The notes under the pieces: generated by a model | What the model saw: the letters and a program-made list of their open reading frames with translations, nothing else | The model's database searches: none | Told to the model about the DNA's origin: nothing | Virus record (IMG/VR): IMGVR_UViG_2617270923_000003 | Location: 1 to 64,000 of that record | Reading direction: 5' to 3' (one strand) | Source: a virus | DNA length: 64,000 bases | Program-made: the position numbers and the translations under genes | Part shown: positions 3,503 to 59,575 of the stretch, one piece after another | Layout: each line of letters opens with the position of its first letter | Numbering within the stretch: the stretch's first letter is position 1

Positions 3503-3521
3503 AAAAGTTTGAGGAAGCGCA

Positions 3522-4551: not shown

Positions 4552-4555
4552 AGAA

Positions 4556-5324: not shown

Positions 5325-5587
5325 CGCCACTGCTTTATCAGCTTCTCCTTCTGGCCCTGGACATAAGCGGCATCAAACTTTGGATGCCGCTCCCAGAACT
5401 TGAGCTTCCGCTCACAAATCAGGATCTCTTTCTCGACCGAGGCACGCTCTTCCCGCGTGCCCTTGACGGCTACGAAGTTGAGGAACAGATAATTGGAGTA
5501 GTGGCGCAGATAGGCTTCCGAGCCGTTCATCTTCCATACGTCGATGTCGGAATGGGCGCGCGGCGCAGTATCGCTGTAGAAATACAT
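5282..5587 (-). CDS. hypothetical protein (101 aa)
   Basis: ATG at 5587 preceded by GGAGATC RBS. Confidence 0.45.
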   Translation of the reverse strand: MYFYSDTAPRAHSDIDVWKMNGSEAYLRHYSNYLFLNFVAVKGTREERASVEKEILICERKLKFWERHPKFDAAYVQGQKEKLIKQWRQDAAGASGKTSAP

Positions 5588-5740
5588 TTGAGATCTCCGT
5601 CTCGTTGCTGACAGAGATAATTTCGCATGTTCGATCGTGGATATCGGGAGGTGCTTGACGGAAAGCGCCGGGCGACACATATTAGCGGAGTGGGCCAGGA
5701 GCGCTAACTCCTGACCCGTTTACCTTACGAGACGAATAAG

Positions 5741-5777
5741 ACCCGCACTCTCACTGTCCAGGTGGTGCGGGTTTTTC
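5741..5777. terminator. Rho-independent terminator (acccgcac...gtgcgggttttt)
   Basis: 7-bp GC stem followed by TTTTT on the plus strand. Confidence 0.5.
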
Positions 5778-5960
5778 GTATCTCAAAGGTGATACTCAAT
5801 GGCACAAGCCACATCATATCTCTCCTATCGTAGGCGAGGGCACTCGCTGGGTGCTGGTGCGGCCCATCCTCACCAGCGCGCGCCTGGACCTCGCGCACAC
5901 TGCTTTTCGCCTTCGATTCGATCACTTTAGCAGCATCTATAGCGGATGTCGGCAGGTTTA

Positions 5961-6150
5961 CTAGCGGGACCCGGCGCGGGGTGCGCATACGACCTTCGAA
6001 CCGGGCCTGAGCATATTCAACTCCTTTTTGACGACCGCGGCGACCAGCCGGCATTCGTCGCGGCTCGTAAACACAGCATTTGCGCGCTTGATATCGGGCT
6101 CTGGACCCGTGAAGTTGAAAATCAGCAGGATTGTGGTGATCTTGAGCATG
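5961..6150 (-). CDS. hypothetical small protein with hydrophobic N-terminus (62 aa)
   Basis: ATG at 6150 preceded by AAGGAGG RBS. Confidence 0.4.
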
Positions 6151-6218
6151 TTGTGCCTCCTTCTAACCAGAAAAGCCCGCACGAGGCGGGCTTCTCCAGT
6201 CGACTGCGGGATCCGCGG

Positions 6219-7118
6219 TTACTTGATCGCGTTGAAGAACGGGATCGCAGAGTTCGGCGTCATCGTGGTCGGCAGTTCGCCCTTCCACTGCAGAGCCTTC
6301 TGGTATTCGATCAGGTTCGGGTTGGCAGACAGAGCGTCGGACTTGGCCTTGATGGCAGCAGCGTCGGCTTCGCCGATAAGGCGATTACCTTCAGCGACAG
6401 CCTTGGAGTCAGCAAGCTTGCCGGCTGCGTTGGCTTCTGCGACCGCGAGCTGGCTATCAGCCTGGGCCTGCGCATTCGTCACCGCAATTTCAGCGTTGAT
6501 CTTCGCCTGCAGCGCCTTCTGTTCGAGCTTCTTGACCTCGACCTCCTGGGTCATCTTGGCTTCGATATTGTCCTCGTAGCTATCCGGCAGCGAGAAGTTT
6601 TCGATCTGCGCCGAGAGGATCTCGACAGGTCCATCGATGTTGCGGATGCGCTTGGTGAATTCGGCGCCAAGCTCGGCGCGCTTCTGGATCGCGGTGTCAG
6701 CGGTGAACTGTCCAAAGACCGTTTCGAGCGTTTCACCGACGCGACGCGTGACCATCTGGCTCACTGCCTGTTCGACAGTGCCGTAGCGGGTATAGATCTC
6801 CAGGACGGATTCATTTGCAGGCTTGGCGCGGTAGCCGATCGAAACGCGGTGAACGGTCGCGGTCTGACCATCGCGGGTGTAAGCCTTGATCTCGTCAAAG
6901 GTGATCATGCCGTCGCGAAGGGAAACTTCCTTCGTATCGTCGACCCAGGGTGCCTTCCAGTGGAAGCCGGCATCAGCCACACCGGTCACGGCGCCGTTGC
7001 GAAGGACGATCGCCTTCTCGCCTTCATCGACAGTGTAGAAGGAGCCGCCTACGACGCCGAGAGCGACGAACAGGGCGATACCGGCGATAATGCCAGAGAA
7101 AATCTTTGCGGGGCTCAT
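6219..7118 (-). CDS. SPFH/band-7 (prohibitin/HflC-like) membrane protein
   Basis: N-terminal TM helix, then an SPFH core (EKAIVLRNGAVTG...HWKAPW...RDG..ITFDEIKAYTRDGQTATV) and a long Ala/Gln/Lys-rich coiled-coil typical of the HflK/C and stomatin families. Confidence 0.8.
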   Translation of the reverse strand: MSPAKIFSGIIAGIALFVALGVVGGSFYTVDEGEKAIVLRNGAVTGVADAGFHWKAPWVDDTKEVSLRDGMITFDEIKAYTRDGQTATVHRVSIGYRAKPANESVLEIYTRYGTVEQAVSQMVTRRVGETLETVFGQFTADTAIQKRAELGAEFTKRIRNIDGPVEILSAQIENFSLPDSYEDNIEAKMTQEVEVKKLEQKALQAKINAEIAVTNAQAQADSQLAVAEANAAGKLADSKAVAEGNRLIGEADAAAIKAKSDALSANPNLIEYQKALQWKGELPTTMTPNSAIPFFNAIK

Positions 7119-7120
7119 GG

Positions 7121-7243
7121 TTATTCCTTGTCTCCTTTAGACTTGTCGGAACGATTGGTGAGAAACAGACTCGTGCGGTAGACGCCAATGGCGAACACGA
7201 CGAGAAGGACGGCAAAGCCGAGGAACATCGCGAGCTTTCCCAT
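7121..7243 (-). CDS. micro-ORF, single-TM peptide (40 aa: MGKLAMFLGFAVLLVVFAIGVYRTSLFLTNRSDKSKGDKE)
   Basis: Absent from the ORF track (<60 aa). TGATG-coupled to the upstream micro-ORF. Its stop is followed by AAAGGAGACAAGGAATAAcc-ATG of the SPFH gene. Confidence 0.45.
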   Translation of the reverse strand: MGKLAMFLGFAVLLVVFAIGVYRTSLFLTNRSDKSKGDKE

Positions 7244-7463: not shown

Positions 7464-8909
7464 TTATGCAGCCGCCTGCACCTCGGCGTTGACGCGCTGC
7501 ATGGTCGAAGCGACAAAGCCAACGAGCGACTTGTGGGCGCGATCGGTAATCTGCTCCCAGGACTGGGTCGTGATGAAATCGCCGTTGCGGAAGACGACCT
7601 GGAGCTGGTTGTCGATGCCCTCGGGCAGCGCGTCCTCGCGGATGGTTTCGAATTCGCCGTCATTCATGACCACGGCGACACGACCAGCCTTGGAAGACTT
7701 CGAGGGATCCGTCGCGGGCTTCTTCTGCACGTCCTGCCAGCCATTTCCGAAGTCGATGGCATTAGCCTTCATGGCGAAGCGCTGATCGTCGCGCTTGTGG
7801 GACTGCAAGAGCCCACCACCCATGCCAAAGGCGATATTGTCGATGGAGAAGCCTTCCATCAGCATCCGGGCAACCAGGGCAGCAACAGACTGCGGCGTCA
7901 TGCCGTCGCCCTGGATGACGCGCACATGCTTGTCGAGAACCTTGAACCCCTTCGAGTTCGTGGTCCCGCCGAAGATATCCCAAAGCTTCTTGATGACCGC
8001 AACGGGCGTTTCGACCGGATCGCCGGAGTCAGGACGGATAACGAGCGTGCCGTCGATATTGAGGATCTTCTCCTTGAGCTCGTCGCCGAAGATGTTCTCG
8101 ACCGCGTTGAACAGGTCGTAACTGTCGGAGACGACCGAGAACAGACCGTGACCGAAGTTGTCGATCATATTGGAGTAGGCATCCGCTTCGCGGTCCTGAC
8201 CCCAGCTCGTCATGGTCGAATGCTCCGACGCCGGAATGGAGAAGCCGGGCATCTCCTGAGCATCGTAGTAGTGCATCGCGCCCTGAATGGCTTCGAGGGT
8301 GTCGGTGCCCTTGAAATTGACCAGGTGAGCCATACCGCCCAGCATCGCGGATTCGCCAGACGAGACTCCACGGGCGCCGAAGTCATGCAGCTTGAACGGG
8401 ATCTGACCATCCGGATCGTCGGATGAGCGCTTCAGGCCGTCATAGATGATCGCCTTGGTGATGAAGGAGATCGTCGCGACAGAGGTCGGATACCAGATGG
8501 CGCGCAACAGCGCGGTTTCGACGAAGCTCGTAAGCCACGGAACCTTCGGGTCGGTGTTCTTGACCTGGATCATCGGCGTGCCGCGCGGAACGAACGAACC
8601 TTCCGGCAGAGCCTGAATCTCAATCGGCAGGTAGCCGTCATGATGTTCAAGGATATAGCGCCAGCCTTCCTCGTTGAACGGCAGGCCGTGCTTAAGGCAA
8701 AGCTCCTTGGCTTCCACGATGTCCGCTGCCTGAATCGGCATCGTCAGGTATTCCGACAGAAACGCCTGCAAACCGAAGAAGACGGAGAACTGCGGGCGAT
8801 CCGACTGCTTGCGCGCCTCGATGTAGGAGGAGATGAACTGCGCGCCGGGCGGATACTGGTTGAAATGGGACTGCTTATAGCTGTCCGTGGACAGGATGAT
8901 GTTCCTCAC
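7464..8909 (-). CDS. nadV: nicotinamide phosphoribosyltransferase (NAMPT/NadV)
   Basis: 481 aa; matches NAMPT along its whole length (STDSYK...HDFGARG...GTDT...SIPA.EHST...IRPDSGDP...QGDG). Confidence 0.85.
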   Translation of the reverse strand: MRNIILSTDSYKQSHFNQYPPGAQFISSYIEARKQSDRPQFSVFFGLQAFLSEYLTMPIQAADIVEAKELCLKHGLPFNEEGWRYILEHHDGYLPIEIQALPEGSFVPRGTPMIQVKNTDPKVPWLTSFVETALLRAIWYPTSVATISFITKAIIYDGLKRSSDDPDGQIPFKLHDFGARGVSSGESAMLGGMAHLVNFKGTDTLEAIQGAMHYYDAQEMPGFSIPASEHSTMTSWGQDREADAYSNMIDNFGHGLFSVVSDSYDLFNAVENIFGDELKEKILNIDGTLVIRPDSGDPVETPVAVIKKLWDIFGGTTNSKGFKVLDKHVRVIQGDGMTPQSVAALVARMLMEGFSIDNIAFGMGGGLLQSHKRDDQRFAMKANAIDFGNGWQDVQKKPATDPSKSSKAGRVAVVMNDGEFETIREDALPEGIDNQLQVVFRNGDFITTQSWEQITDRAHKSLVGFVASTMQRVNAEVQAAA

Positions 8910-9949
8910 AGGTAGTCTCCCTTGAGCAAGTTGGTGATGATGGAATGATGGTCTTCGTAGAACTCAGCGGTCGTGAGCGACGCGAAGTCATACCAATCGG
9001 CATGAGCCGCATCGTCACCCGCCTTGACGGCCGGGAGTTCCACGTCGGCGGGAATGGCGAACACGAAGGCCATCGACACGATGCGACCGCGGAGAGAGCG
9101 GTTCGGGTTGTCACACAGCCACTCGCCGGCGCAGTGTTCCTCAAGTGTCTCGCGATCGAGCCCGGTCTCTTCCATCGCTTCGCGTAGCGCGGCATCGAAG
9201 AAGCGTTCGCCCTTCTCGACGAACCCGCCCGGCATAGCCTTCTGACCACGACCGGCAGCCTTGCCGCGCGTGACGAGAAGGATCTTGCCGCGATGAAAGA
9301 CGAGAGCATCGGCAGCCAGGAACGGACCGTCGCCGTAGGTCTCCTTGTCCTTGGCGAGACCGTCTTTCCAGGCGACCAGATCCTTGAAGCGCGGCGTAAG
9401 AGCAAACTCCTTGAGCCAGGTGACGACCTGCGGCGAGCAAGCGTCATGCGGCAGGCGCGGGAGCCGGCGAAGGTAATCGTCGCGGATATCGGACGCGTTG
9501 AGCGTGCCGTGCTGAATGTCGATCTGAATATTGTCCCACTGGGGAAACATATTCAGATAGTAAGACGAGGCATCCTTGCCGAAGCCGGCGAGCGCGACCT
9601 TGAAGTCGTTTAACCCATGCAGGCGAATGCCACCCTTGTTGGCGTGATTGAGGATCGCATTCTCGACGCCACGGCGCAGGTTCTTCTCCCAATCGTAGTC
9701 GTGCTCGTAATCGTAGAGCGGGACCAGGATCAGACGGCCGGTTTCCAGCTCGTGATGGAAAACCCGTGTAAACATCGCTTCGCGATCAGCGAAGGTGAAA
9801 GGGTTCTTGGGCGTGGGCGCCATGTGGCTCGAACCAACAACGACGATCAGGGTTTCAACACGCTCAAGCGCGCCGCGAATGACGGCCTCGTGGCCCAGAT
9901 GAAGAGGCTGGAAACGGCCGATGAAGACGCCGTAGTGAAAGTCGCGCAT
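8906..9949 (-). CDS. natV: bifunctional NMN adenylyltransferase / Nudix ADP-ribose pyrophosphatase (NatV-like)
   Basis: N-terminal nucleotidyltransferase motif (GRFQPLHLGH) and a C-terminal Nudix box (GG.VE.GE....A.REA.EETG). ATGA-coupled to nadV. Confidence 0.8.
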   Translation of the reverse strand: MRDFHYGVFIGRFQPLHLGHEAVIRGALERVETLIVVVGSSHMAPTPKNPFTFADREAMFTRVFHHELETGRLILVPLYDYEHDYDWEKNLRRGVENAILNHANKGGIRLHGLNDFKVALAGFGKDASSYYLNMFPQWDNIQIDIQHGTLNASDIRDDYLRRLPRLPHDACSPQVVTWLKEFALTPRFKDLVAWKDGLAKDKETYGDGPFLAADALVFHRGKILLVTRGKAAGRGQKAMPGGFVEKGERFFDAALREAMEETGLDRETLEEHCAGEWLCDNPNRSLRGRIVSMAFVFAIPADVELPAVKAGDDAAHADWYDFASLTTAEFYEDHHSIITNLLKGDYL

Positions 9950-10731: not shown

Positions 10732-12186
10732 TTACGCAGCCTCTGCGGGCTGCGTATCCTTCTTGGGCTTCTTGCCCTTGTGCCACTTCATTTCGCCGGC
10801 CATGATCGAGCCACGCGGAAGAATCCGGTCGGCAATCTTGGCGAGTTCGAACTTTTCAATCTGAGCTTGCACCTGGCTTGCGTTCTTGTAGGCGCTCGGC
10901 AGTTCGGATACGTCCGGATCACCGGTGTAGAAGCGGACATCAAGGCCGGCCGTTTCACGATCCATGATCGCCTTGATCGCATTCGGGCCCAGACCGCGCG
11001 TGTCGCCGAACTCTTCCATGAGGCGCTTGATATGCGCCGTGCGGGAGAGATTGCGCCCGGCACCATGCGGTGCGAACCCGAGAGCGTTCTCGTTGTTCTT
11101 GTGCTCGGCGATCAGGATGGGCTGTGCCATATTCATCGGGATCAGCGTCAGACCCTGGTCATCCTTTGAGAAGCCCTTGAAGGACGGCGTTGCGCCCTTG
11201 GCGTGGTAGAACAGCCCGTCGGAGCGCTGAAAGACAAAATTGTGCTCGTTCCAGAACTGCCCGATGATCTGATTACCGAGCCGCTTGGCGACCAGGTTGT
11301 GAATGGCGAAGTGGTTCATCTTCGTCCAAAGGCGCAGCGCCTGAAGAGCCTGCCAGTAATCCTGGCCCACCTGGCTATCCGCCTCGATCCAGGCATTGTG
11401 CAACGGGATCCTCGGGGCGACGATCCGCGTATGGCGCTCGGCTGCAGCCTTGCCCCGCTTGTAGAGCTGACCGCCCAGCCCACGAGAGCCATGATGAGTA
11501 ACGATCGCCATCTGACCGGTCGATTCCAGCTCGCCCACGTAGAAGAAGTGATTGCCGTCACCCTGGGTCATGAAGTGGTGGATGGCGTAATCCTCCAGCC
11601 CTTTCAAGAACGGGTTGGCTTCGAAACCGTTGACCAGGCTCACAAGATCCTTGTGCTGACGAACCTCAGACGCCGTGCGCTTGCCGACGCCGAAGTGGGT
11701 CGCCTTCATGGCGATATCAAGCACATAATCGACCGGCGTGTCGCGCTTGAAGACGGAGATCGCCATCGAGCAGCAGATGTCGGCCGAGTGGAAGCCCGGA
11801 TGGATCGCGTTCTTGGTCGCAACCACGCCACCAACAGGAATCGTGCCTATCGCAGAGCCTGACGGGCAAGCGTCAGGCATGACTGCGCCGCGCTCGATAG
11901 TCGGAACGCGCATTAGCGCATCCATGTGGGCGAGGACGCCGGCGACGTTCGCCTTCTCGTCGTCACCTTCCGGCTCGATGAACTGGCCGAACGGAATGTT
12001 GTTGGTTCGCAGCGGCACACCTTCCTCGACAGCCTTGGCTGCCTGGAGCGGAAACAGCGCCTGAATGATCTCCTTGTCGGTCTTGCCGTCCTCGCGGAGC
12101 TGGCGAGCCAACGGCAGCGCTTCCTTGAACCATGCGCCAGGCTGTAAGCCCCACGCGACGAGCGTCTTGCCCGAGATATTACTCAT
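10732..12186 (-). CDS. rtcB: RtcB-family RNA 3'-phosphate ligase
   Basis: 484 aa with the conserved RtcB motifs (QGDGNHF, THHGSRGLG, FAPHGAGR, His/Cys metal ligands). Confidence 0.85.
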   Translation of the reverse strand: MSNISGKTLVAWGLQPGAWFKEALPLARQLREDGKTDKEIIQALFPLQAAKAVEEGVPLRTNNIPFGQFIEPEGDDEKANVAGVLAHMDALMRVPTIERGAVMPDACPSGSAIGTIPVGGVVATKNAIHPGFHSADICCSMAISVFKRDTPVDYVLDIAMKATHFGVGKRTASEVRQHKDLVSLVNGFEANPFLKGLEDYAIHHFMTQGDGNHFFYVGELESTGQMAIVTHHGSRGLGGQLYKRGKAAAERHTRIVAPRIPLHNAWIEADSQVGQDYWQALQALRLWTKMNHFAIHNLVAKRLGNQIIGQFWNEHNFVFQRSDGLFYHAKGATPSFKGFSKDDQGLTLIPMNMAQPILIAEHKNNENALGFAPHGAGRNLSRTAHIKRLMEEFGDTRGLGPNAIKAIMDRETAGLDVRFYTGDPDVSELPSAYKNASQVQAQIEKFELAKIADRILPRGSIMAGEMKWHKGKKPKKDTQPAEAA

Positions 12187-21277: not shown

Positions 21278-21354
21278 TGGTTGGGGATTAGAGGAGTCGA
21301 ACCTCAACCTTGTCTGACTCGTCAGCCAGTTGCTCTGCCCTGAGCTAATCCCCA
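21278..21354 (-). tRNA. tRNA-like gene with a normal acceptor stem, D-arm and T-arm (GGTTCGACTCC) and encoded CCA, but an aberrant anticodon arm
   Basis: rc sequence TGGGGAT-TA-GCTC-AGGGCA-GAGC-A-ACTGGCTGACGAGTCAGAC-AAGG-TGAGG-TTCGACT-CCTCT-ATCCCCA-A-CCA. The anticodon region is the palindrome CTGAC-GA-GTCAG, so a 5-bp stem with a 7-nt loop cannot form. Confidence 0.4.
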
Positions 21355-21370
21355 ACATGGACACGATTTG

Positions 21371-21647
21371 ACGAAGGGTGCCTCTTAGTTCCGGGATCGA
21401 ACCGGCACACCCGTTTGTAACTGGCCTCGGACGGAGCAGGGAGCGCTGCTGTGGTCGCGATTGCTCTCGTCTAACCGCGCCGCCGAAGATGCACCAGCGT
21501 CCGATTATGCCTCGTCAATTCGAGGATTATTCCCCTAAGCCGGCCTTGTCGGCACTTGCGTAACTCCAACCCGTAAAGGTCTTGCGGAGAATGCGGGGAT
21601 GCCTGGGCTAAATCTACCTCCCAGGCTGAATCGGAGCACCCTTCGTC
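21371..21647 (-). ncRNA. ~277-nt structured RNA element closed by a 12-bp long-range helix, with a tRNA T-arm-like hairpin (CCGG-TTCGATC-CCGG) near its 3' end
   Basis: 21371-21382 (acgaagggtgc..) is the reverse complement of 21635-21646. Internal perfect hairpins include GCCTGGG/CCCAGGC, CCTCG-AATTGA-CGAGG and GAGCA...TGCTC. The element sits between two tRNA genes. Confidence 0.3.
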
Positions 21648-21654
21648 AAAAAGA

Positions 21655-21727
21655 TGGCCGGGAGGCAAGGAGTCGAACCTCGACCGCTGCCCTCCATAGG
21701 CAGTGCTCTGCCCTAAGCTACCTCCCG
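21655..21727 (-). tRNA. tRNA with anticodon UGG (Pro) and an unusual A33; encoded CCA
   Basis: rc sequence CGGGAGG-TA-GCTT-AGGGCA-GAGC-A-CTGCC-TATGGAG-GGCAG-CGGT-CGAGG-TTCGACT-CCTTG-CCTCCCG-G-CCA. Cloverleaf is clean; the anticodon loop is UAUGGAG. Confidence 0.55.
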
Positions 21728-21980
21728 GTATTTATGGTGGTGATGAGCTCCTATACCCCTCTGGCCGACTGCCAGTGATATCCGCGGTGTCAATCGCGGC
21801 CAGGGCTCCTAAGAGCTCATCACCGAAACGTTTCCCCGTTCATCCGGCCTATCAGATGGCTACTTTCGCAGCGTCCACGATCTACCCAGCGCTAGACTCA
21901 GGCGGTGGCGGGGCTTGCCTTGCGGAGCGGTGTTCAGACTCCACAAGTTCGGCGCACTTCGTTGCCCATTCGGGCGAAAC

Positions 21981-22068
21981 TGGAGATCCGGGTCGGATTC
22001 GAACCGACGAGTCCAAGAAAGGAACGGGATTTGCAGTCCCGCGCGTTCGACCACTTCGCTACCGGATC
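21981..22068 (-). tRNA. type-II (long variable arm) tRNA with anticodon GCA (Cys codons) and U73 discriminator; encoded CCA
   Basis: rc sequence GATCCGG-TA-GCG-AAGTGGTCGAA-CGC-G-CGGGA-CTGCAAA-TCCCG-TTCCTTTCTTGGACTC-GTCGG-TTCGAAT-CCGAC-CCGGATC-T-CCA. It has a 3-bp D-stem with an 11-nt D-loop and a 16-nt variable arm, as in Ser/Leu/Tyr tRNAs. The anticodon is that of Cys. Confidence 0.6.
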
Positions 22069-22298
22069 GGATGGGCTGGGACGCCAGCGACTAGGCACTG
22101 GTCTGGACCGCGGCTCCACCCTACTACCTGGGACGCTAACGCGCGCCAGGCCGTCCCAACTCGTTGAATTAACGTCCCTGGGAGTAGAAAGGACGAAACA
22201 CCTCCCAGGGACTCGCCGGGTCGCTACTCCGGTGAACAGGCGATAGGCGTGGGTTATGACGCCTCGTTTTAAGTCGCCGCTTGCGCGGCTTGATTAGC

Positions 22299-22367
22299 AT
22301 CGGGAGCGTGGAGTCGAACCACGACCGCGGATTTCAAGCCCGCCGCACTGCCCTGTGCTACTCCCGC
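22299..22367 (-). tRNA. short type-I tRNA with anticodon UGA (would read UCA Ser codons), G1-A72 mismatch, no encoded CCA
   Basis: rc sequence GCGGGAG-TA-GCAC-AGGGCA-GTGC-G-GCGGG-CTTGAAA-TCCGC-GGT-CGTGG-TTCGACT-CCACG-CTCCCGA-T. 69 nt with a 3-nt variable loop. Confidence 0.5.
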
Positions 22368-41878: not shown

Positions 41879-42511
41879 TTAGAAAGCGCCGAAAATCTCG
41901 TTCTGCTGGTAGTGCTGTTCGCGCACCTCAGCCTCGGCCAGTTCTTTTTCGAGCTTGCGCTTGTGGTTCTCCATCTGGAAAGCAAGCTCGCGCACGTGGC
42001 GCATCTTCTCTTCACGCTGGAGTTCCCTCTCGGCCGCGATATCTGCCGGCGAGACGGCGATGCCATGCGAGGCCAGCCCGAGCTTCTTCTGCCATTCATC
42101 GATCGCGGCCAGACGTTCGCTTTCCTGCATGTCGTTCCACTCCTCGATCTCAAACTGTTCGAGCACCTTGTCGCCGTCGTTCATGACGGACCGCAGCATC
42201 GGGTGCCTACCCTTCGGCTGCCACCAGTCCGGTGCGGGCTGGTAGTAATACTGCGTCGGCGTCAGGGGCATTCCGCGCCATGTCATGAACGTGCCTAAGA
42301 CCCTGGCGTTTTCGTTAGGCAACCTCATCTTGCCGTAGGTCATAGGAACGGGCGTGGGATCAGCCGTGGGCTTGCTCTCGACCGGCTCTTCGCCCACAGC
42401 GGACAACGACTCCAAGATCCGCTGAAGGAAGCCCTTCTTGGGCTTCTCCAACGCGGTCAGGCTTGCAACATAAGTCGGACGCATGATCTCAATCCCTCCG
42501 TTCCAAATCAT
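41879..42511 (-). CDS. hypothetical protein (210 aa) ending ...QQNEIFGAF; ATGA-coupled downstream of dnaE
   Basis: ORF with a Trp-rich central region and a C-terminal coiled-coil. Confidence 0.5.
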   Translation of the reverse strand: MIWNGGIEIMRPTYVASLTALEKPKKGFLQRILESLSAVGEEPVESKPTADPTPVPMTYGKMRLPNENARVLGTFMTWRGMPLTPTQYYYQPAPDWWQPKGRHPMLRSVMNDGDKVLEQFEIEEWNDMQESERLAAIDEWQKKLGLASHGIAVSPADIAAERELQREEKMRHVRELAFQMENHKRKLEKELAEAEVREQHYQQNEIFGAF

Positions 42512-45500
42512 GACAGGCAGTCCGCGACGGCTGCGAACACCTGATTCATGTTTTCCTGCTTGTCCGGGTCGTGATAGATTTCACCCGGAGAGAAGCCGAT
42601 GATGATGTTGGCGTCATACTTCTTGGAGTAGATGACCTTGCCGGCCTGCTCTGACGCCTTACCCTTGAAGTCCGGGAAGAAGTGACGCACGGTCGTCGAG
42701 CCGAGGAGCACGATGACGGGCGGCTGCAACAATTCGATCTCCCGCTCCAGGTAGGGCTCGTAGGTCTTGATCTCGTCGGGCGTGACCTGCTTGCCGCGCT
42801 TCGGACGCTTGATGAGCGCCGTCCAATAGGCGTTGTGTCTATCGAGGGACGCCGTTTCGATCGCTTCGACCACTGCGTTATTCGAGATCGAGAAGCCCAT
42901 GATCCCGCCCGTGTCCTCCTCGTTGCCGGGGGCATCGGAGATGATCATGAAGTCGGCGCTCTTGCCGAAGAACGGCTTGACCGGATATCCGTCTGCAGTC
43001 GTGGCCTTGGGCCCATGCGCTGCGCGGTATTCGTCCACGAGCTCGCCAAGGGCTGCCTTCGTGTCCTTATCCTTGTTCAAGTCGTGGTCGACCGGCACAT
43101 GCGCGGCGATCAGGCCCGGCAGGAGTTCGATCTGGTCCTTGATGCGGCTCGGGTCGTTAGCAGGCGCCTGACCAGACTCAATGCGAGAGAAAGCACCCAC
43201 CAGGTCGAGCGCCTCCTGGACCCGCTTGTTACAGACGCGCTTCTCCACCCGAGACAGGAAATCGTTCTTATCGACAAACGGGCCGGCCTTGCGGGCTGCG
43301 AGGATCGCGTTCGTTGCCTTCTCGCTCAGACCCTTGATGCGCTGGAGCGGCATGACGAGGCGGACAGACGTTGCCATCTCGAAGCGGTTGGTCGAGATAT
43401 TGATGTCAGGCATCGAGACCTCGATCCCGAGCGCCTTTGCATCCCGGATGATACCCGTCAGCTTCTCTTCCTTCTGCACGGTCAGGGCTGCGGCGTAGAA
43501 CTCGGCCGGATAGTAGGTCTTGAGATACATCGACTGATAGGAGATCAGCGTGTATTCGACCGAGTGCGACTTGTTGAAGCCGTAGCCGGCGAAGCCTTCG
43601 ATCTTGTCGAACAGAGCGCCTGCCCAATCCTCGGTGCAGCCGATCGTGGCGACACAGCCGTCGCAGAACTTCTTCCGCTCCTTCTTCATTTCCTCCGGCA
43701 GCTTCTTGCCCATGATCTTGCGGAGCTTGTCAGCAGCGGCGCCGGAGTAGCCGGCGATCACCTGGGAGATCTTCATGACCTGCTCCTGGTAGACGATGAC
43801 GCCGAAGGTTTCTTCGAGCACCGGCTCCATCAGCGGGTGATCATATTCGATCTCCTCATTGCCCTGCTTGCGCAGATAGAAGCTATCCATCATCCCGGAC
43901 TCGATCGGGCCAGGACGATAGAGCGCGGTGCAAGCCGTGATATCTTCGAAGGTGATGACGCCAGTCGAGCCGAGCTCCTTCAAGAGCCGGCGCATACCTC
44001 CGGACTCGAACTGGAAGATGGCAGTCGTGTTCGCCTTGGCGAAGTTCGCCAGCACCTTCTCGTCATCGAGAGGAATGCGGTTCAAGTCGATGCGCTTGCC
44101 CGTGTTCTCGCGGATATATTCGAGCGCCAGGGTCATATGGTCGAGCGTGTTCAGGCCGAGCACGTCCATCTTGACCAGGCCCTGGTCCTCGACGATGCGC
44201 TTGTCCCAGCACACGACGTTGCCTTCCTTGCGCCGTTCCACGACCGCGCGATCCACAATGTCTACACCGGCGACAATGACACCGCCTGCGTGCTGACCGA
44301 AGTTGCGGATCGTTCCTTCCAGGCGCTCCATCATCGGATAGTGCGTCGGATAGTTGTTGGCGAAGTCGTCGATCTCCTTGACCTGCTTGCGAGCCTCGGG
44401 GAGGGGAACGTTCTGCCCGTGCAGCTTCGGCACGAACTTGGAGACGGAGAAGTCCTTTTCGGGGATGAGCGTCACGCGGCCGACATCGCGGATCGCGGAT
44501 GCGGAGCCGAGCGTGCCATAGTTATTGACGCCTGCGACACGCGCTGCGCCATACTTCTTGGTCAGATATTCGAAGACCTCGTGCCGGCGCTCGGACATAA
44601 AATCGAGGTCGGCGTCGGGCAAGTCGATACGTTCGGGATTGATGAAGCGTTCGAACAGGAGCCCGAAGCGGATCGGGTCGCACTCGGTAATGCCCATCAG
44701 ATACGCGACGAGGGATCCGCCCACGGAACCACGACCAGGGCCAACCATGATGCCGGACTTCTTGGCAAACTGCACCACGTCCTGCACGAGCAGGAAGTAA
44801 CCCGAGAAATTGAGGCGCTTGAGGGTTTCGAGTTCATAGGCGAGGCGAGGCTTATAAACCTCGACCAGCTCCTTTGCGCCCGGCTGATGACCGAAGATCG
44901 GCGCGTCGAAGCGCTCCTTCCAGCCCTTCTTGCACTCCTCGACCACGGCGGCGAACTCGTTCGGCGCCATAACCGGCAGTGACACGTCTGCCTTCTTCCA
45001 TTCATATTCGACCAGGTCGACTAGCTCAGCCGTATTGAGCAGCCCCTGCTTGAAGCAATCAGCGACATACGAAGCAGCCATGCCGCGCTTGACCAGGTGG
45101 GCTACCGCCTTCTTCATTTCGCCGACGAGCTCGCCCGAGCCCATGATGTGCATATCGCGGTTGAAACGCGACTTGAACCAGCCATCGGTGATCTTGTTGT
45201 TGTCGGAGATCGCCGTCATAATTTCCTGGGTGTCGGCTTCGCCCTGGCCGTAGAAGGCCGGACGCACGACGATCGGCTTGATGTTCTGCCGGGCGAACTC
45301 GCCAAGCGCGATCTGATTAAGCCGACCGTAATAGGGCGTGCTAACCGGGATCAGCGGCGCATACAGATGCGTCACGCGGGTTTCCAGCTCATCCACGATC
45401 TTCGTGTATTCGGGGTGCTCCAGGATGCTGTGAGCGTCACCGAGGACGATAGCGAGGTCATCCGGCGCGATCTTCGCCAGCTCCTTGTAAAGATCCTCGA

Positions 45501-45873
45501 AGCCGAGCTTGGCCTCGTAGTAGAAGCGGTCGTCCGAGTTGGCGAGCGTCAAGAGACGGAAGATCGCCTTCATGCCAACTTCCTTGAGCGCGTAGACGGT
45601 CAGGAAGTAGGAGCGCGGCATATCCTTCTTTTTCTCACCATCGCCCGGACGCCAGGTCGGATCATCGGACAGGCGCAGCCGGCAACCAATCACAGGCTTC
45701 AGACCCTCGGCCTTGGCCTTATTCGTAAAGTCGATCATGCCAGTAATCGACATGGTGTCGGTCATCGCGACGGCCTTGGCTCCGGCGTCGACGGCGTTCT
45801 TAATCAGACGCTTGGTTGTGAGGATGCTTTCGCCGACTGAGAAATCAGTCCGCGCTGCAAGGATCGAGTGCAT
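42508..45873 (-). CDS. dnaE: DNA polymerase III alpha subunit (DnaE-type C-family polymerase with N-terminal PHP domain)
   Basis: 1121 aa, full-length similarity to bacterial DnaE: PHP His/Asp motifs, palm catalytic Asp region (GPGRGS), fingers, and OB-fold. Confidence 0.9.
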   Translation of the reverse strand: MHSILAARTDFSVGESILTTKRLIKNAVDAGAKAVAMTDTMSITGMIDFTNKAKAEGLKPVIGCRLRLSDDPTWRPGDGEKKKDMPRSYFLTVYALKEVGMKAIFRLLTLANSDDRFYYEAKLGFEDLYKELAKIAPDDLAIVLGDAHSILEHPEYTKIVDELETRVTHLYAPLIPVSTPYYGRLNQIALGEFARQNIKPIVVRPAFYGQGEADTQEIMTAISDNNKITDGWFKSRFNRDMHIMGSGELVGEMKKAVAHLVKRGMAASYVADCFKQGLLNTAELVDLVEYEWKKADVSLPVMAPNEFAAVVEECKKGWKERFDAPIFGHQPGAKELVEVYKPRLAYELETLKRLNFSGYFLLVQDVVQFAKKSGIMVGPGRGSVGGSLVAYLMGITECDPIRFGLLFERFINPERIDLPDADLDFMSERRHEVFEYLTKKYGAARVAGVNNYGTLGSASAIRDVGRVTLIPEKDFSVSKFVPKLHGQNVPLPEARKQVKEIDDFANNYPTHYPMMERLEGTIRNFGQHAGGVIVAGVDIVDRAVVERRKEGNVVCWDKRIVEDQGLVKMDVLGLNTLDHMTLALEYIRENTGKRIDLNRIPLDDEKVLANFAKANTTAIFQFESGGMRRLLKELGSTGVITFEDITACTALYRPGPIESGMMDSFYLRKQGNEEIEYDHPLMEPVLEETFGVIVYQEQVMKISQVIAGYSGAAADKLRKIMGKKLPEEMKKERKKFCDGCVATIGCTEDWAGALFDKIEGFAGYGFNKSHSVEYTLISYQSMYLKTYYPAEFYAAALTVQKEEKLTGIIRDAKALGIEVSMPDINISTNRFEMATSVRLVMPLQRIKGLSEKATNAILAARKAGPFVDKNDFLSRVEKRVCNKRVQEALDLVGAFSRIESGQAPANDPSRIKDQIELLPGLIAAHVPVDHDLNKDKDTKAALGELVDEYRAAHGPKATTADGYPVKPFFGKSADFMIISDAPGNEEDTGGIMGFSISNNAVVEAIETASLDRHNAYWTALIKRPKRGKQVTPDEIKTYEPYLEREIELLQPPVIVLLGSTTVRHFFPDFKGKASEQAGKVIYSKKYDANIIIGFSPGEIYHDPDKQENMNQVFAAVADCLS

Positions 45874-46672: not shown

Positions 46673-47317
46673 CTAATTCGAAATGAGCCGCCCGATCTGG
46701 GTGACTTCATCCATGATCTGCTTGCGCTCGGCCCGGCTTGCGCCCATGAAATCAAAGATCATTGCGCTGGTGATGCGGCCGGGCATTGCGTAACAAGCGC
46801 CAATTTCCTTGGCGTAGGCGGATTTCGCTTCGAGATCCTTCATACGTTCCATCAGCTCCGGCGGATTGTCCTTGAGGAAGGTCAGAAACATCTGCGACCG
46901 GGGCGACAGGCGCGTCAGAGCGTAAGCGAAGCAATCCTCACGCTGATAGGTTTCGTCCTGACGCTCGTGCGGGTCAGGAACAACGTCGCCAAGCGAGGTT
47001 GCGCCCGTATAATCTGCGTCGTCTCCCCGCAGCTTCATGTCGAGGGACGCGGCGATGGTCTCGCCATGAAAGCGCTCGAAGTTCTTCTCGACCCAGCGAT
47101 TGATGTGGTTGCGCAGACCAGCATAGAGAAAGGTCTTAAACGCGGCACCGCCGTTGTCGTCATACTTTTCGCAGGCCAGGCACCACGCTACCCAGAGCTC
47201 GCTTTCAACATCTTCGAGGGTCTGGGTCTTGGCCCCAAGCGCATGAACGCGCTTGAGCACCTTGTAAGCAAATGCCTTGATCTGCTGGCGATCGAGCTTC
47301 GGGTCACGCTTGATCAT
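46673..47317 (-). CDS. sigma-70 family (ECF-like) sigma factor
   Basis: Region-2-like segment (AFAYKVLKR...ELWVAWCLACEKYD...FKTFLYAGLRNHINRW) and a C-terminal region-4-like HTH. Confidence 0.55.
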   Translation of the reverse strand: MIKRDPKLDRQQIKAFAYKVLKRVHALGAKTQTLEDVESELWVAWCLACEKYDDNGGAAFKTFLYAGLRNHINRWVEKNFERFHGETIAASLDMKLRGDDADYTGATSLGDVVPDPHERQDETYQREDCFAYALTRLSPRSQMFLTFLKDNPPELMERMKDLEAKSAYAKEIGACYAMPGRITSAMIFDFMGASRAERKQIMDEVTQIGRLISN

Positions 47318-48654: not shown

Positions 48655-48728
48655 CGCTATAAGTAATGACTTACTTATTTTTCAGATGGAGAGCAAGCGG
48701 GAAAATAAGCTCCCGCTTACTTTTTTTA
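48655..48728. promoter_or_regulatory. inverted cassette copy (CGCTATAAGTAATGACTTACTTA on the plus strand) followed by a plus-strand intrinsic-terminator-like hairpin (AAGCGGGAaaataagcTCCCGCTT + T7) between cobT-like and cobS-like genes
   Basis: Orientation is opposite to the other copies; GC stem plus T-tract at 48695-48728. Confidence 0.35.
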
Positions 48729-51086: not shown

Positions 51087-51132
51087 GTCGCGTCTCTCCT
51101 TGAGATAAGTATTTGATTACTTATGTTTATGC

Positions 51133-51414
51133 TCAAAATGAACGGAGCACTACAGGCTTCACTTCGAACGACAAAAGCCCCTTTGCATCGCCAATGGCTG
51201 GAATGACAACGTGAATGTTGCCGTGGATCGGATGCTTTCCGGAGTAGACGGTGCAACCGTTCATCTCCTCGACCTCGCGATTTTCGAGCTCCATAGCGAC
51301 CTCGTTGGCCTGTTCGTTCGTGAAAGACAGATTGCGGAGGAAAGGTGACTTCTCGCTCATGATGACCTCGTGTTTGGACGGTGTAAGTATGCGATTACTT
51401 ATATTCGCGGACAA
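51133..51414 (-). CDS. hypothetical protein (93 aa or shorter)
   Basis: ORF downstream of a palindrome/promoter cassette at 51392-51450. Confidence 0.4.
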   Translation of the reverse strand: MSANISNRILTPSKHEVIMSEKSPFLRNLSFTNEQANEVAMELENREVEEMNGCTVYSGKHPIHGNIHVVIPAIGDAKGLLSFEVKPVVLRSF

Positions 51415-51473
51415 AAAGAATGCTTGCCATGGTTATAGCAAGCATCCAATTGAACCGCTGCAGGTCAGGAGCG

Positions 51474-51875
51474 TTACGCGTCGGGCGCGAACAGCTTCCG
51501 TAGGGCCTCTTCACGCTCCTTCGTCAAGGCGGGCGGCGTATCGCCCGCCGCTTCTCTGACGGTATTCAGTATGGCGCGCTCTTCCTTGGAGACCCCGGTC
51601 TCCATAAGCTCGGTCAGCATTCTAACCGAGGCGTCGTCGTAAAATTGGGTGAGCGCCAGTTTGAACATATCCACCGGGTCGACACCAAGGGCCTTAGACA
51701 TCGCTGGAACGCGGTCGAGAGCGAGCTTCACATGCCCAAGTTTGAGCATGGTGATCATGTTCTGGTTCTTGAAGCCGACGGCCTCCGCTATCTCTCTTTG
51801 AGACTTCGAAGACTCCATGAGCAGCTTCATAATGTAGTTGGAAAACCTCGTAGGTGTTCCTGCTTCCTTAGCCAT
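51474..51875 (-). CDS. XRE-family HTH transcriptional regulator (Cro/CI-like)
   Basis: HTH SQREIAEAVGFKNQNMITMLKLGH; AGGGGATTTGAA RBS. Diverges from the RHH-RepC operon. Confidence 0.65.
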   Translation of the reverse strand: MAKEAGTPTRFSNYIMKLLMESSKSQREIAEAVGFKNQNMITMLKLGHVKLALDRVPAMSKALGVDPVDMFKLALTQFYDDASVRMLTELMETGVSKEERAILNTVREAAGDTPPALTKEREEALRKLFAPDA

Positions 51876-51912
51876 TTCAAATCCCCTGACAGGCGGTTCG
51901 TTTTCAATTTCA

Positions 51913-51951
51913 GTGTCTCTCGCTTTCGACAGTTCATTTATAGCGAGACAC
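51913..51951. promoter_or_regulatory. 10-bp inverted repeat GTGTCTCGCT...AGCGAGACAC enclosing a TTATAGCG box, in the XRE / RHH divergent control region
   Basis: Perfect 10-bp arms separated by 17 bp; candidate operator. Confidence 0.4.
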
Positions 51952-52177
51952 TGATGGGATCGTTGCGGAAGTCGTTAGACCATACGAAAAAAATATGTCA
52001 ACACTTACTTATTTTCTGGACTCGGCTTGTCATCAATTCGAGTCCTCTATAAGGGCATTTCCCTGGGGCAAAAGGATCGCTGAGTTCCATAATTAAACTT
52101 ATGCGATCAATTGTGGATTCGCTGCTACTGTTGATTGTCTGGAACTTTTGGGGTTCACAAATCGAGAGAATCGGGCA

Positions 52178-52199
52178 ATCACTAGCGATGTAGTGATTT
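52178..52199. promoter_or_regulatory. palindromic operator AATCACTAgcgatgTAGTGATT immediately upstream of the RHH gene
   Basis: 8-bp perfect arms 15-20 bp before the RHH start; typical RHH autorepression site. Confidence 0.45.
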
Positions 52200-52220
52200 G
52201 AATGAGTCGGAAGTTTGAGC

Positions 52221-52418
52221 ATGGGCATCCAAGCAGAGATAACACCGTCAGAACGTTATAGGGTCAAGCGCGAGGCGCGGGGCGAAAAACAGGTTCTTTT
52301 GTGGATAGAGAACCGTCTGACGGCGCAACTGGATGATCTAGTCAAAACGGGTGAGTTCCGCAATCGGTCTGAGGCCGTTGCGGTTGCCCTTAACAAGTTG
52401 ATCGAGGAACGAAACTAA
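52221..52418 (+). CDS. ribbon-helix-helix (CopG/ParD-like) DNA-binding protein
   Basis: 65 aa with EFRNRSEAVAVALNKLI, a typical RHH second helix. GGAAG RBS. Confidence 0.6.
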   Translation: MGIQAEITPSERYRVKREARGEKQVLLWIENRLTAQLDDLVKTGEFRNRSEAVAVALNKLIEERN

Positions 52419-52586
52419 GGGCTTAAACGGCTGAAGGCTCCAGGACGGCAATCCCAGAGCCTTCGAATTAGATAGTGACCGTCGGGACACCAGAGCCATT
52501 TAGCAACTCTGTTATCCCGAATCACCGCTGATTTGTCAACGACCTTTTGGGGTCGATGGCGAAGCTTTGCCCGGAAACGAGGGATT

Positions 52587-53714
52587 ATGAGAAGCGCACA
52601 GTCATCCGGCTGGCGCGCTCTAAAGCCGACAAAGCCGTCGGCCGCGGAGCCTGATACAGCGGATAAACAAGTCCTCTATGAGGCGGCCAGAGCGGCAGCT
52701 CAGGTCTTGAGATTGCCGTCGTCATGCCGGTTCGTTCTGGATCAGCTTGTCGGCGTCTATGGTGGAGAGCTCATCGAAAACCGTATGCTCGTCTGGCCGT
52801 CCAACGAATTTCTGGTCGAACGAACGGGAATCCCGGAGCGGTCTGTTCGCTACGCCTTGTCGCGACTGCTCGCAGAGGGCGTCATCGGCGCAAAGGATTC
52901 GCCAAACGGCAAGCGATATGCGCAGCGATCGCCCCGTGGGCAGATCATCAAGGCGTATGGTTTCGACCTCTCCCCTCTCCTCGCTATGCTCCCCGAGTTA
53001 CGCGATCGGCTGCAGGCAATCAGAGACGCCGAGCGTGAGCGCTTGGCTGTATTCGATGATCTCACTATACACCGAAGAGCGGCTCAGGAAGCGCTGAGGA
53101 CGCTTGCTGAGGTCTATCCGGACATCGACATAGTTGACCTCGGCTCGCGGGCCCTTGAGCTTGCACGAGTTACACCACGCAGATCCGTAACGGGATCGGC
53201 CGATAGTGCCCGAGATGCATGGCAGGCGATCAGGATCGAAGCAGAAAGCAGATATTATGCCGCCTCTGCCGGCAATTCTTGCCGTCACAAAGACAACAAC
53301 AAATATGCCCCTGACCAGTCTTGTAACAACGGCAAAGAGAATGGTGAGGAGGCGAAGCCGAGGGTAACCGCGACGGCTGAGGATGTGATGAAGGCGTGCC
53401 CGGACGCAATGGAGTTTATCGGGCCTGCCAGAAGCGACCGTGAATTTGTGGCGTGCGTCGGTCGCGCCCGCGGCATGTTTGGTGTTTCACCGTCAGCCTG
53501 GGAGGAAGCAGTGCGCGAAATCGGGGCGCTGGGCGCGGCCGTGACGCTGACTTATGTGGTTCAACTCCAGCAGAGGCCCGCGCCGGGGTCGGAGACTATC
53601 AAAAACGCGGGCGGCTATTTCCGAGCGCTGGTGAGGCTCATCAAGAATGGATCCGTCGATATCGAAGCCGAGATTATGAAGCTGAAAAGGTCGGGTCGAC
53701 CACGATCTGATTAA
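52587..53714 (+). CDS. repC: RepC-like plasmid replication initiator (repABC-family type)
   Basis: N-terminal winged-helix segment (VLDQLVGVYGGE..WPSNEFLVERTGIPERSVRYALSRLLAEGVIGAKDSPNGKRYA) closely resembles alphaproteobacterial RepC. A central AT-rich low-complexity stretch (53230-53350) sits where repC genes carry their internal origin. Confidence 0.6.
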   Translation: MRSAQSSGWRALKPTKPSAAEPDTADKQVLYEAARAAAQVLRLPSSCRFVLDQLVGVYGGELIENRMLVWPSNEFLVERTGIPERSVRYALSRLLAEGVIGAKDSPNGKRYAQRSPRGQIIKAYGFDLSPLLAMLPELRDRLQAIRDAERERLAVFDDLTIHRRAAQEALRTLAEVYPDIDIVDLGSRALELARVTPRRSVTGSADSARDAWQAIRIEAESRYYAASAGNSCRHKDNNKYAPDQSCNNGKENGEEAKPRVTATAEDVMKACPDAMEFIGPARSDREFVACVGRARGMFGVSPSAWEEAVREIGALGAAVTLTYVVQLQQRPAPGSETIKNAGGYFRALVRLIKNGSVDIEAEIMKLKRSGRPRSD

Positions 53715-54168
53715 CGTCATCGAGCTTGGCCCAGAATTTTCGGCGAGCCGGACGGTAAGTGCCGCCTTGGCTGATTGGGGTTAGCTTTGGAGAGGGAGAC
53801 GAGCATATGAGAAAGGAGACCACTGGATTGGTCGAACCCTTCTTAACGTCAATCTTGTCGACGGTGAGGATTGTGCCGGCATCGAGAGTAATATGGGCGC
53901 CCAAGAACACCTGCCCACGGCGGATGCGATAGATTTCGGTTATTCTCTCGTCCTGCTGAAGGGTTCGTCGCCGCGAATTAATCAACTCCAGGGAGGCTAG
54001 TTCCTGATCGATATCGCCGGCCTTTATGAGTTCGTCGCGGTAGTCGGCGCTGTTGGAAAGATCAAGACCATTCCAGAGATCGGCGTTCTGGTGATCGTTG
54101 TATAACTTAAACGTCCATGGCTGAAGCAATTCAACCTTTTGCCCCACCCTAGGTATAAATATGCGCAT
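53674..54168 (-). CDS. hypothetical protein (164 aa)
   Basis: Minus-strand ORF converging on repC with a 40-nt overlap. Confidence 0.45.
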   Translation of the reverse strand: MRIFIPRVGQKVELLQPWTFKLYNDHQNADLWNGLDLSNSADYRDELIKAGDIDQELASLELINSRRRTLQQDERITEIYRIRRGQVFLGAHITLDAGTILTVDKIDVKKGSTNPVVSFLICSSPSPKLTPISQGGTYRPARRKFWAKLDDVNQIVVDPTFSAS

Positions 54169-56906: not shown

Positions 56907-57028
56907 AGCTTTCCTCTGCGCGACAATCGGTCTGCGACCAGTGATGCGCGTTTCTTCGTTCATGTTTGAGTTATAGCGAGATCGTCATTGGGACGCGGCA
57001 GGAAATAAGTATGTGATTACTTATCCCG

Positions 57029-59505: not shown

Positions 59506-59575
59506 TCCTAAGTAAGTGCTTACTTATATTATAAGACGCAGAGCGTCGTGTTTCGACTTATAGCGAAACGTTGAT
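59506..59575 (-). promoter_or_regulatory. tandem cassette: palindrome TAAGTAAgtgcTTACTTA + TATTATAAG, then a second CTTATAGCG box; between the 59579..60337 gene and helicase
   Basis: Two -10-like boxes 35 bp apart. Confidence 0.4.

Follow-up and report, generated by a model that had tools for sequence, protein, structure and literature searches.

Positions 51,474 to 53,714 of a 64,000-nucleotide stretch of viral DNA (positions 1 to 64,000 of IMG/VR record IMGVR_UViG_2617270923_000003; the whole stretch is called the window here) hold a replication module composed of repC, which encodes an initiator of the RepC superfamily, a small upstream gene for a probable ribbon-helix-helix (RHH) protein, and a divergently transcribed gene for an XRE-type regulator. 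Most likely, the module serves to maintain as a plasmid a phage-plasmid of the RHEph10/pLM21S1/B1VFA lineage, carried by Rhizobium sp. AN5. The three open reading frames (ORFs) are present at the coordinates given in an earlier description made from the DNA letters alone (the sequence-only reading), which had placed them in a virulent-looking T4-like phage.

The repC gene and the element that carries it

The initiator gene, repC (52587-53714, plus strand), encodes a protein of 375 amino acids (aa) with RP-C N-terminal and C-terminal domains. Both domains exceed the curated Pfam cut-offs (RP-C, PF03428, E-value of 1.7e-37 and 129.3 bits against a cut-off of 24.4; RP-C_C, PF11800, 9.8e-17 and 61.5 bits against 32.6), which identifies the protein as a RepC-superfamily replication initiator. 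The NCBIfam equivalog RepABC_RepC (NF040974) is matched at 193.6 bits (cut-off 150) and PHROG 22671, a phage protein family named 'replication protein', at 5.6e-95; a PDB sequence search with RepC found nothing. The profile searches thus uphold the original assignment, and the motif on which it was built (WPSNEFLVERTGIPERSVRYALSRL...DSPNGKRYA) is found in the protein. The longest version of the ORF opens with a TTG at 52533, with an alternative ATG at 52587. The latter is almost certainly the start, since it is preceded by a Shine-Dalgarno (SD) sequence, agrees with the annotated repC starts in relatives and yields a 375-aa product that exactly matches the gene called on the source contig; alignments of the longest ORF to most relatives begin only at residue 11-19. 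The ORF is full length, every conserved block is kept, and a ratio of nonsynonymous to synonymous substitution rates (dN/dS) of 0.12-0.20 indicates purifying selection. Because the gene upstream codes for a 65-aa RHH protein, and a ParA/ParB-type gene is neither adjacent nor present in the window, the module should be filed as a repC-family (solo repC) replicon and not as repABC.

The RepC sequence is that of the Rhizobium sp. AN5 protein WP_097169887.1, whose gene lies on contig OCMJ01000001.1 (120,504 bp; assembly GCA_900215255.1), one end of which carries phage lysis (lysozyme) and tail genes and no chromosomal genes. In searches of phage, plasmid and IMG/VR collections, the best RepC match (84% identity) was among IMG/VR contigs, and 64-74% identity was found to the RepC of the plaque-forming Rhizobium phages B1VFA, V1VFA-S, RHph_X66, RHEph10 and RHph_N1/N2/Y2. 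Five circular plasmid records of 115-120 kb carry the module as well, namely pLM21S1 (Sinorhizobium), pRlX6 (R. beringeri) and plasmids of Shinella, Pararhizobium and Methylobacterium. Common to phages, plasmids and IMG/VR contigs is the placement of a leftward XRE gene and rightward RHH and RepC genes between CobT-like and ligase genes, and the gene order in all relatives is CobT/CobS-like, XRE leftward, RHH and RepC rightward, ligase, primase and DnaB. As the plasmid records and the plaque-forming isolates attest, the lineage occurs both as an extrachromosomal replicon in bacterial cells and as infectious virions. The plasmid-like carrier state that the sequence-only reading had suggested is supported, with the window lying on a contig of Rhizobium sp. 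AN5 and close relatives being circular plasmids.

Parts of this picture have been published. An earlier study reported pLM21S1 of Sinorhizobium sp. LM21 to be a plasmid-like prophage that lacks an integrase and has a RepC replicon (PMC4447125). [quoted passage not shown] The annotation of RHEph10 assigns gp039 to the repC family. Pfeifer et al. related RHEph10 to the phage-plasmid pLM21S1 and left it outside their curated AB phage-plasmid group (PMC7969092). Both repC in RHEph10-type phages and their plasmid lifestyle are already in the literature (PMC4447125, PMC7969092, PMC12509600), so the discovery is incremental, and the novelty implied at first was overstated, with repC annotated in RHEph10 and treated as a phage-plasmid feature. 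New here are the signature of an origin embedded in repC, evidence by strand for an antisense RNA, a pair of candidate operator sites, and the limits of the cassette.

In pLM21S1, nearly all genes lie on one strand, the exceptions being RHH-repC, a parA block and a handful of other minus-strand coding sequences (CDS). This layout explains why the module had been noticed on the strand opposite to its surroundings, and the strand of RHH-repC agrees with maintenance genes being shielded from lytic transcription. In the window, the rep module is accompanied by phage genes for replication and nucleotide metabolism and by a tail fibre gene. Among these are T4-flavoured domains (gp32-like, RecA/UvsX-like, Mre11/Rad50-like, the NrdAB ribonucleotide reductase and a Gp34-trimer domain in the tail fibre), from which the impression of a T4-like phage probably came. 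That the element is a virulent T4-superfamily phage with an auxiliary theta origin is nevertheless hardly credible. Its polymerase is a DnaE-type Pol III alpha with a PHP domain and a C-terminal uracil-DNA glycosylase (UDG)-superfamily domain (42508-45873) instead of a family-B enzyme, and its relatives are siphophages with HK97/lambda-type structural genes, exemplified in pLM21S1 by an HK97/lambda-type capsid gene, a tape-measure gene and gpL/gpK/gpI/gpJ-like tail genes. Moreover, both the relatives and this element are found in bacterial assemblies as replicon-sized molecules of ~120 kb. The Pol III alpha-UDG fusion is in itself unusual for a phage replicase.

Candidate origin and regulatory DNA

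A candidate core of the replication origin (oriV) lies inside repC at 53250-53334 (85 bp; nucleotides (nt) 664-748 of the gene). Across ten relatives, synonymous-codon identity is 0.86-0.93 at residues 219-248 versus 0.32-0.68 in other 20-codon intervals, and pairwise dS is 0.06-0.34 in the candidate core versus 1.0-1.8 in the upstream part of repC. The sequence-only reading had remarked on an AT-rich, low-complexity stretch at about 53230-53350. The dip in GC content is real but modest (0.48 at 53250-53349 versus 0.59 for repC), and a 90-nt GC minimum is located at repC nt 631-661 in 8 of 10 relatives, where the GC content at third codon positions (GC3) is depressed as well. The description as low complexity does not hold, for the stretch encodes AGNSCRHKDNNKYAPDQSCNNG, the best conserved peptide of RepC. 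An interpretation as a low-complexity linker was likewise rejected, the peptide and the DNA at this position being the most conserved part of repC. The core comprises an imperfect dyad, CGGCAA-TTC-TTGCCG (53270-53284), followed by an A-rich tract, CACAAAGACAACAACAAATATG (53286-53307); repC has no long direct repeats.

Two characterized replicons offer a parallel. In p42d, repC alone replicates, an A+T-rich region occupies nt 450-850 of the gene, and silent mutations at nt 658-822 abolish replication (PMC3155836). Purified RepC of pTiR10 binds an imperfect dyad beside an AT-rich region in the middle of repC and acts in cis only (PMC6090056). Both the constraint and its position match p42d and pTiR10, by which 53250-53334 is likely the oriV core. 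The early suggestion that the origin resides within repC thus gains support from the synonymous constraint and the GC/GC3 minimum at the p42d-equivalent position.

The 168 nt that separate the RHH stop codon from the repC start contain several conserved elements. On the minus strand, opposite the repC leader, we predict a counter-transcribed antisense RNA (ctRNA) of ~75-80 nt (52425-52503) that ends in a 14-bp hairpin (52433-52464) and folds at -36.3 kcal/mol (z = -5.45). In an alignment of nine distinct relatives, 98.4% of the hairpin cells are paired when read as minus-strand RNA, compared to 81.0% for the plus strand, with five covarying pairs; the difference stems from the wobble positions, which read G-U in the minus-strand RNA but C-A in the plus-strand RNA. 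In most relatives, the minus-strand hairpin is succeeded by a U-run. The candidate ctRNA promoter (52511-52539, minus strand) consists of a -35 box TTGACA (52539-52534), a 17-nt spacer and a -10 box GATAAC (52516-52511), and this 29-nt block shows no variation within the Rhizobium/Sinorhizobium clade. The leaders of the Shinella, Pararhizobium and Methylobacterium elements are otherwise unalignable, yet a TTGAC box recurs in them at equal offset from repC, with a strong hairpin and U-run 70-110 nt downstream of it. Solo repC replicons use an antisense RNA upstream of repC as a negative regulator and incompatibility determinant (PMC10194956), and repABC replicons are likewise controlled by a ctRNA (PMC6090056).

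Alternatively, the hairpin may serve as terminator or attenuator of the RHH transcript and the 29-nt block as a binding site for RepC or RHH, with no antisense RNA involved. All 29 nt are conserved, spacer included, which is more than a promoter requires; the block also holds a motif common to the RHH upstream region (AATCAC..TGATTTG, see below), the control region has no Rfam ctRNA match, and in several relatives a short T-run follows the hairpin on the plus strand too. Yet the helix pairs better as minus-strand RNA, the longer U-run is on that strand in most relatives, and TTGAC with a downstream terminator recurs at equal offset in three divergent genera. We therefore regard this explanation as rather improbable and retain the predicted ctRNA. 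Further downstream, a small covarying hairpin, CGACC-TTTTGG-GGTCG (52540-52555, plus strand), belongs to the repC leader itself, since its wobble pairs hold in the sense-strand RNA; after it come a near-palindrome, GGCGAAGCTTTGCC (52558-52571), and the SD sequence GAGGG (52579-52583) that precedes the ATG at 52587.

The RHH gene (52221-52418, plus strand) encodes 65 aa from an ATG at 52221, with an alternative TTG start at 52215, and a 65-aa gene is called at the equivalent position on the source contig. As a single sequence, its product matches Pfam RHH_1 at an E-value of 0.07 and NCBIfam CdrS at 1.2e-5, all matches being below the curated cut-offs. RHH_1 matches five of nine homologues (best 1.6e-4, also below the cut-off), the top PDB profile match is the RHH domain of NikR (0.016, via the '..NRSEA..' helix), and RefSeq annotates homologues as RHH proteins. 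The 65-aa protein is hence probably an RHH protein: the single-sequence matches are weak, and the pattern across homologues agrees with the RefSeq naming and with the original identification.

The RHH control region, which also forms the left end of the cassette delimited below (52154-52214, plus strand), contains TTCACA (52154-52159), the invariant sequence AGAATCGGGC and a perfect palindrome, AATCACTA-gcgatg-TAGTGATT, upstream of RHH. The palindrome had been recognized before and is indeed perfect; its position is 52177-52198, one base off the 52178-52199 first reported. It is a candidate RHH operator. The motif AATCAC..TGATTTG occurs in exactly two copies in the 64 kb, at 52177-52200 and at 52520-52535, the latter within the spacer of the candidate ctRNA promoter, and both sites are kept in relatives. 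As the pattern was defined from these two sites, a shuffle expectation is no independent test of it. The simplest reading would be that one protein, most likely RHH, acts at both. In shuffled sequences, a repeat of at least 8 bp with a spacer of at most 10 was seen in 6.7% and a repeat of at least 9 bp in 4%; the repeats alone are thus only marginally unusual, and the weight comes from their conservation in relatives. No RHH promoter could be placed convincingly, TTCACA-N17-AATCAC being the sole sigma-70-spaced pair, and a weak one.

The control region is rich in GANTC (CcrM) sites, with 8.4 per kb in 51875-52587 versus 1.6 per kb across the window (~5x denser). The corresponding region is enriched in every relative (3.4-11.6 per kb). 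Three sites fall inside invariant blocks (52168, 52204 and 52519), the last one within the candidate ctRNA promoter. GANTC enrichment is known at repE promoters and origins of repABC replicons (PMC6090056), and its presence here hints at a coupling with the host cell cycle.

The XRE gene (51474-51875, minus strand) encodes a 133-aa protein that matches Pfam HTH_3 (4.1e-5, only just above its cut-off) and PHROG families of transcriptional regulators and repressors, which bears out the divergent regulator originally proposed. The protein has no peptidase domain, and a PDB sequence search with it found nothing. A terminator scan placed a strong intrinsic terminator directly after its stop codon (51418-51447, minus strand; 13-bp stem followed by TTTTTGT), from which XRE is a monocistronic unit. 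An XRE gene is present in every phage-plasmid relative and missing from the copies of the cassette on symbiosis (sym) plasmids; the protein is most likely a prophage repressor or switch protein specific to phage-plasmids. Between XRE and RHH, a perfect 10-bp inverted repeat (TCAGTGTCTC / GAGACACTGA, arms 51910-51919 and 51945-51954) corrects the span of 51913-51951 given earlier for this repeat to 51910-51954. Its inner register, TCTCGCT-N17-AGCGAGA, is kept in relatives, and it brackets TTATAGCG, read on the minus strand as CGCTATAA, a -10-like box found at many other genes of the element; the repeat is a candidate XRE promoter and auto-operator. Two more blocks follow, namely ATATGT-N8-ACTTAT (51993-52012), a variant of a 20-bp palindrome scattered over the whole element that is kept in all phage-plasmid relatives including the Shinella element, and the invariant block GTTCCATAA-N6-TTATGCGA (52084-52106), a CATAA/TTATG palindrome conserved in relatives and lacking from the sym-plasmid cassette, which has no XRE.

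The sym plasmids define the boundaries of the replicon. Nucleotide homology to pRlX1, a nif-bearing sym plasmid of R. beringeri TP13, covers 52154-53632 only, and by protein comparison the RHH-repC pair is also found in the related pSM51_Rh08. In both, RHH, leader and repC are present and XRE is absent. These limits delineate a portable 1.56-kb cassette (52154-53714; RHH-ctRNA-repC) and mark XRE and the blocks at 51910-51954, 51993-52012 and 52084-52106 as phage-plasmid-specific additions. A scan of genome contigs returned one locus only, on a sym plasmid. The RHH-leader-repC cassette, with RepC 61-71% identical, is found in the conjugative symbiosis plasmids pRlX1 (at 7578-9134), pSM51_Rh08 and pRL9b2, where it adjoins nif genes and genes for ribosomally synthesized and post-translationally modified peptides (RiPPs) without XRE or phage genes; these plasmids hold 2-3 repC copies. 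This distribution points to exchange of the replicon cassette between phage-plasmids and sym plasmids. A further solo repC (39% identical) was observed at 1-5800 of the 712-kb Microvirga ossetica plasmid unnamed3, among Rad50/Mre11-like and WGR-domain genes. These neighbours are the same as in phage-plasmids, and the locus may be a decayed or co-integrated phage-plasmid in a megaplasmid.

The sequence-only reading had also considered that the module is a remnant of recombination with a rhizobial replicon, that is, a decaying copy without present function. The RHH-repC pair with 71% identity in sym plasmids implies that exchange with plasmids did occur, and repC of pRlX6 carries a frame change. 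A remnant is nonetheless very improbable for the module in the window: it is intact and, with the dN/dS values given above, under purifying selection, it is syntenic across elements of Rhizobium, Sinorhizobium, Shinella, Pararhizobium and Methylobacterium with its position and regulatory DNA kept across these five genera, and synonymous constraint is confined to the predicted origin.

Maintenance replicon or lytic origin

As a maintenance replicon, the module would work as follows. The self-contained unit would be the 1.56-kb repC-family cassette (52154-53714), which has no repA or repB in its operon. RepC, made from an RHH-repC transcript, would act in cis on the origin within its own gene, by analogy with p42d and the RepC of pTiR10, and its binding at the dyad and A-rich tract of 53250-53334 would start theta replication of the circular prophage. 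The ctRNA, transcribed from the TTGACA-N17-GATAAC promoter as far as the hairpin that follows the RHH stop codon, would base-pair with the leader and so reduce the expression of repC. RHH would probably bind both AATCAC..TGATTTG sites, of which one covers its own promoter region and one the ctRNA promoter. XRE would be the phage-plasmid-specific regulator, acting as prophage repressor or switch protein, and partition would be provided by parA and parB-like genes elsewhere on the element, outside the window.

Several observations weigh against this scheme or parts of it. For the element itself, we infer the plasmid state, with one contig end read, and the case for RepC-driven replication, here and in the relatives, draws on sequence comparison and analogy. 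A tblastn search with pLM21S1 proteins did not find parA, parB, terminase or capsid genes in the window; in pLM21S1, terminase, capsid and parAB lie 17-50 kb past the region equivalent to the window edge. Furthermore, pLM21S1 was not induced to form phage, mitomycin C included (PMC4447125, PMC5537653). The cumulative GC skew of the complete pLM21S1 shows no origin signature (monotonic, weakly negative, no inflection), which is uninformative, probably because nearly all its genes are on one strand. The annotation of pRlX6 splits repC (5025-6171) into two CDS, the reading frame changing near residue 280. At the regulatory level, the RHH assignment depends on weak E-values, and the right arm of the RHH-proximal palindrome is spaced variably in relatives. 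In the window's own clade, the ctRNA hairpin is followed by a poor U-run (CCTTCAGCCGTTT), and an Rfam search of the control region at E-values up to 10 found no ctRNA family and only chance hits. A strict sigma-70 scan of 51300-53900 reports no promoter; the candidate ctRNA promoter, whose -10 box (GATAAC) is weak, does not pass because the scan demands a T at position 6 of that box. As to pRlX6, its repC departs from the B1VFA sequence right after the conserved internal element, and the break may be an assembly error, a sign that RepC can be dispensable, or a junction that swaps the C-terminal (incompatibility) domain.

A different role for the same parts is that RepC and its internal origin mainly or also serve lytic replication by recruiting the DnaB, primase and Pol III alpha that the element itself encodes. 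RHH and the ctRNA would then together switch between low-copy maintenance and runaway replication. This explanation overlaps with the maintenance function, and we consider it possible, if on the doubtful side. The repC gene sits in the middle of the replication cluster, with DnaB, primase and ligase on one side and the CobT/CobS-like genes, a sigma factor and Pol III alpha on the other, and no other initiator-like gene was found among the 35 window ORFs scanned against Pfam. A plasmid prophage with an initiator that acts in cis is already known in N15 and its RepA (PMC3155836). Nevertheless, RHH and repC are on the opposite strand to virtually all other genes, as would suit expression independent of lytic transcription, the identical cassette type serves sym plasmids that are not phages, and the screen for other initiators covered part of the genome only.

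The two roles can also be joined in a speculative scheme that we think unlikely as a whole, in which RepC and the intragenic origin are the element's only origin in both lifestyles, RHH, ctRNA and GANTC sites form the switch, and XRE is a global repressor. A plasmid-type, cis-acting RepC may then load the phage's own replisome of DnaB, primase and Pol III alpha, and RHH at the twin sites together with CcrM-methylatable GANTC sites may decide between once-per-cycle and lytic runaway replication. XRE may act through the ~20-35 TAAGTAAG-N4-CTTACTTA palindromes as a P1-C1-like global repressor. This 20-bp palindrome occurs in 22 copies in the window (1428-61256) versus 0.46 expected, and in 35 copies in pLM21S1 versus ~1.2 expected. 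Almost all copies, such as those at 48659-48678, 51105-51124, 57005-57024 and 59508-59527, are intergenic and in gene orientation, just upstream of a GGAG-like SD sequence where one is visible, and many are preceded by a -10-like box (GCGCTATAA) and an upstream CGCTCAnnACCTGnCGCACTCC box. They could be operators of a global repressor, phage promoters with a hairpin in the 5' untranslated region, or translational operators. A sigma-70-family factor (46673-47317; only region 2 detected) is encoded in the same leftward block as the CobS/CobT-like genes and Pol III alpha, and may read the CGCTATAA-type promoters.

Some further features of the element were observed. The 3' end of repC overlaps a convergent 164-aa ORF (53674-54168, PHROG 22676, unknown function) by 41 nt (53674-53714), and no terminator lies between the two. 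At 7464-9949 and 10732-12186, the window encodes two NAD salvage enzymes, NadV (NAMPT) and NadM (NMN adenylyltransferase-Nudix), a pair that pLM21S1 has too, and an RtcB RNA ligase. A 299-aa minus-strand ORF (6219-7118) adjoins NadV, where pLM21S1 has an SPFH gene; a 411-aa plus-strand ORF that overlaps it (5946-7181) has no Pfam match and was set aside as a probable shadow ORF. Four tRNA genes are located at 21282-22367; Rfam at gathering thresholds reports four tRNAs only for the whole window.

For the maintenance replicon favoured here, the analysis provides a testable map of the group, comprising the 1.56-kb cassette, the 85-bp candidate origin core, the predicted antisense RNA and two candidate repressor sites. 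Phage-plasmids are increasingly viewed as bridges between phages and plasmids, but the rhizobial group that relies on RepC has received little study. Rhizobial vectors could use the cassette as a compact replicon, and it could also account for incompatibility between these phages and sym plasmids or for exchange between them.

Comparison with known systems

The closest systems are the RHEph10-like phage-plasmids, which share with this element the order CobT/CobS-like, small ORF, XRE (leftward), RHH and RepC (rightward), ligase, WGR, primase, DnaB and PhoH, the same replication, recombination and nucleotide-metabolism genes (with nadV-nadM as in pLM21S1), the conserved regulatory blocks and the internal repC element. 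Their size of 115-122 kb compares with 120.5 kb for the source contig. Novelty relative to this group is at the sequence level only, for instance in the weaker U-run after the ctRNA hairpin of this clade. The solo repC replicons pRmeGR4a and the repC module of pSmeLPU88b have a ctRNA promoter-plus-terminator architecture that is matched here, whereas here RHH precedes repC, XRE is divergent and the host replicon is a tailed phage genome; there is no sequence or Rfam similarity to known ctRNAs.

With the repABC replicons p42d and pTiR10, the module has in common the two RepC domains, with the RepABC_RepC equivalog cut-off passed, a candidate origin inside repC at a p42d-like relative position, a pTiR10-like imperfect dyad beside an AT-rich tract, and GANTC enrichment in the control region. 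In contrast, its RepC is only ~31% identical to a typical Rhizobium repABC RepC, and no repA or repB lies upstream, so that transcriptional control by RepA/RepB is presumably replaced by RHH. Relatives of this element (pLM21S1) partition by a small unlinked ParA ~70 kb away. Like P1 and N15, the element would be a tailed phage that persists at low copy number as a plasmid by means of dedicated rep and par functions, and its many dispersed palindromes recall the dispersed C1 operators of P1. The initiators are unrelated, however, being RepA types with iterons in those phages and RepC with an intragenic origin here, and lineage and host range differ.

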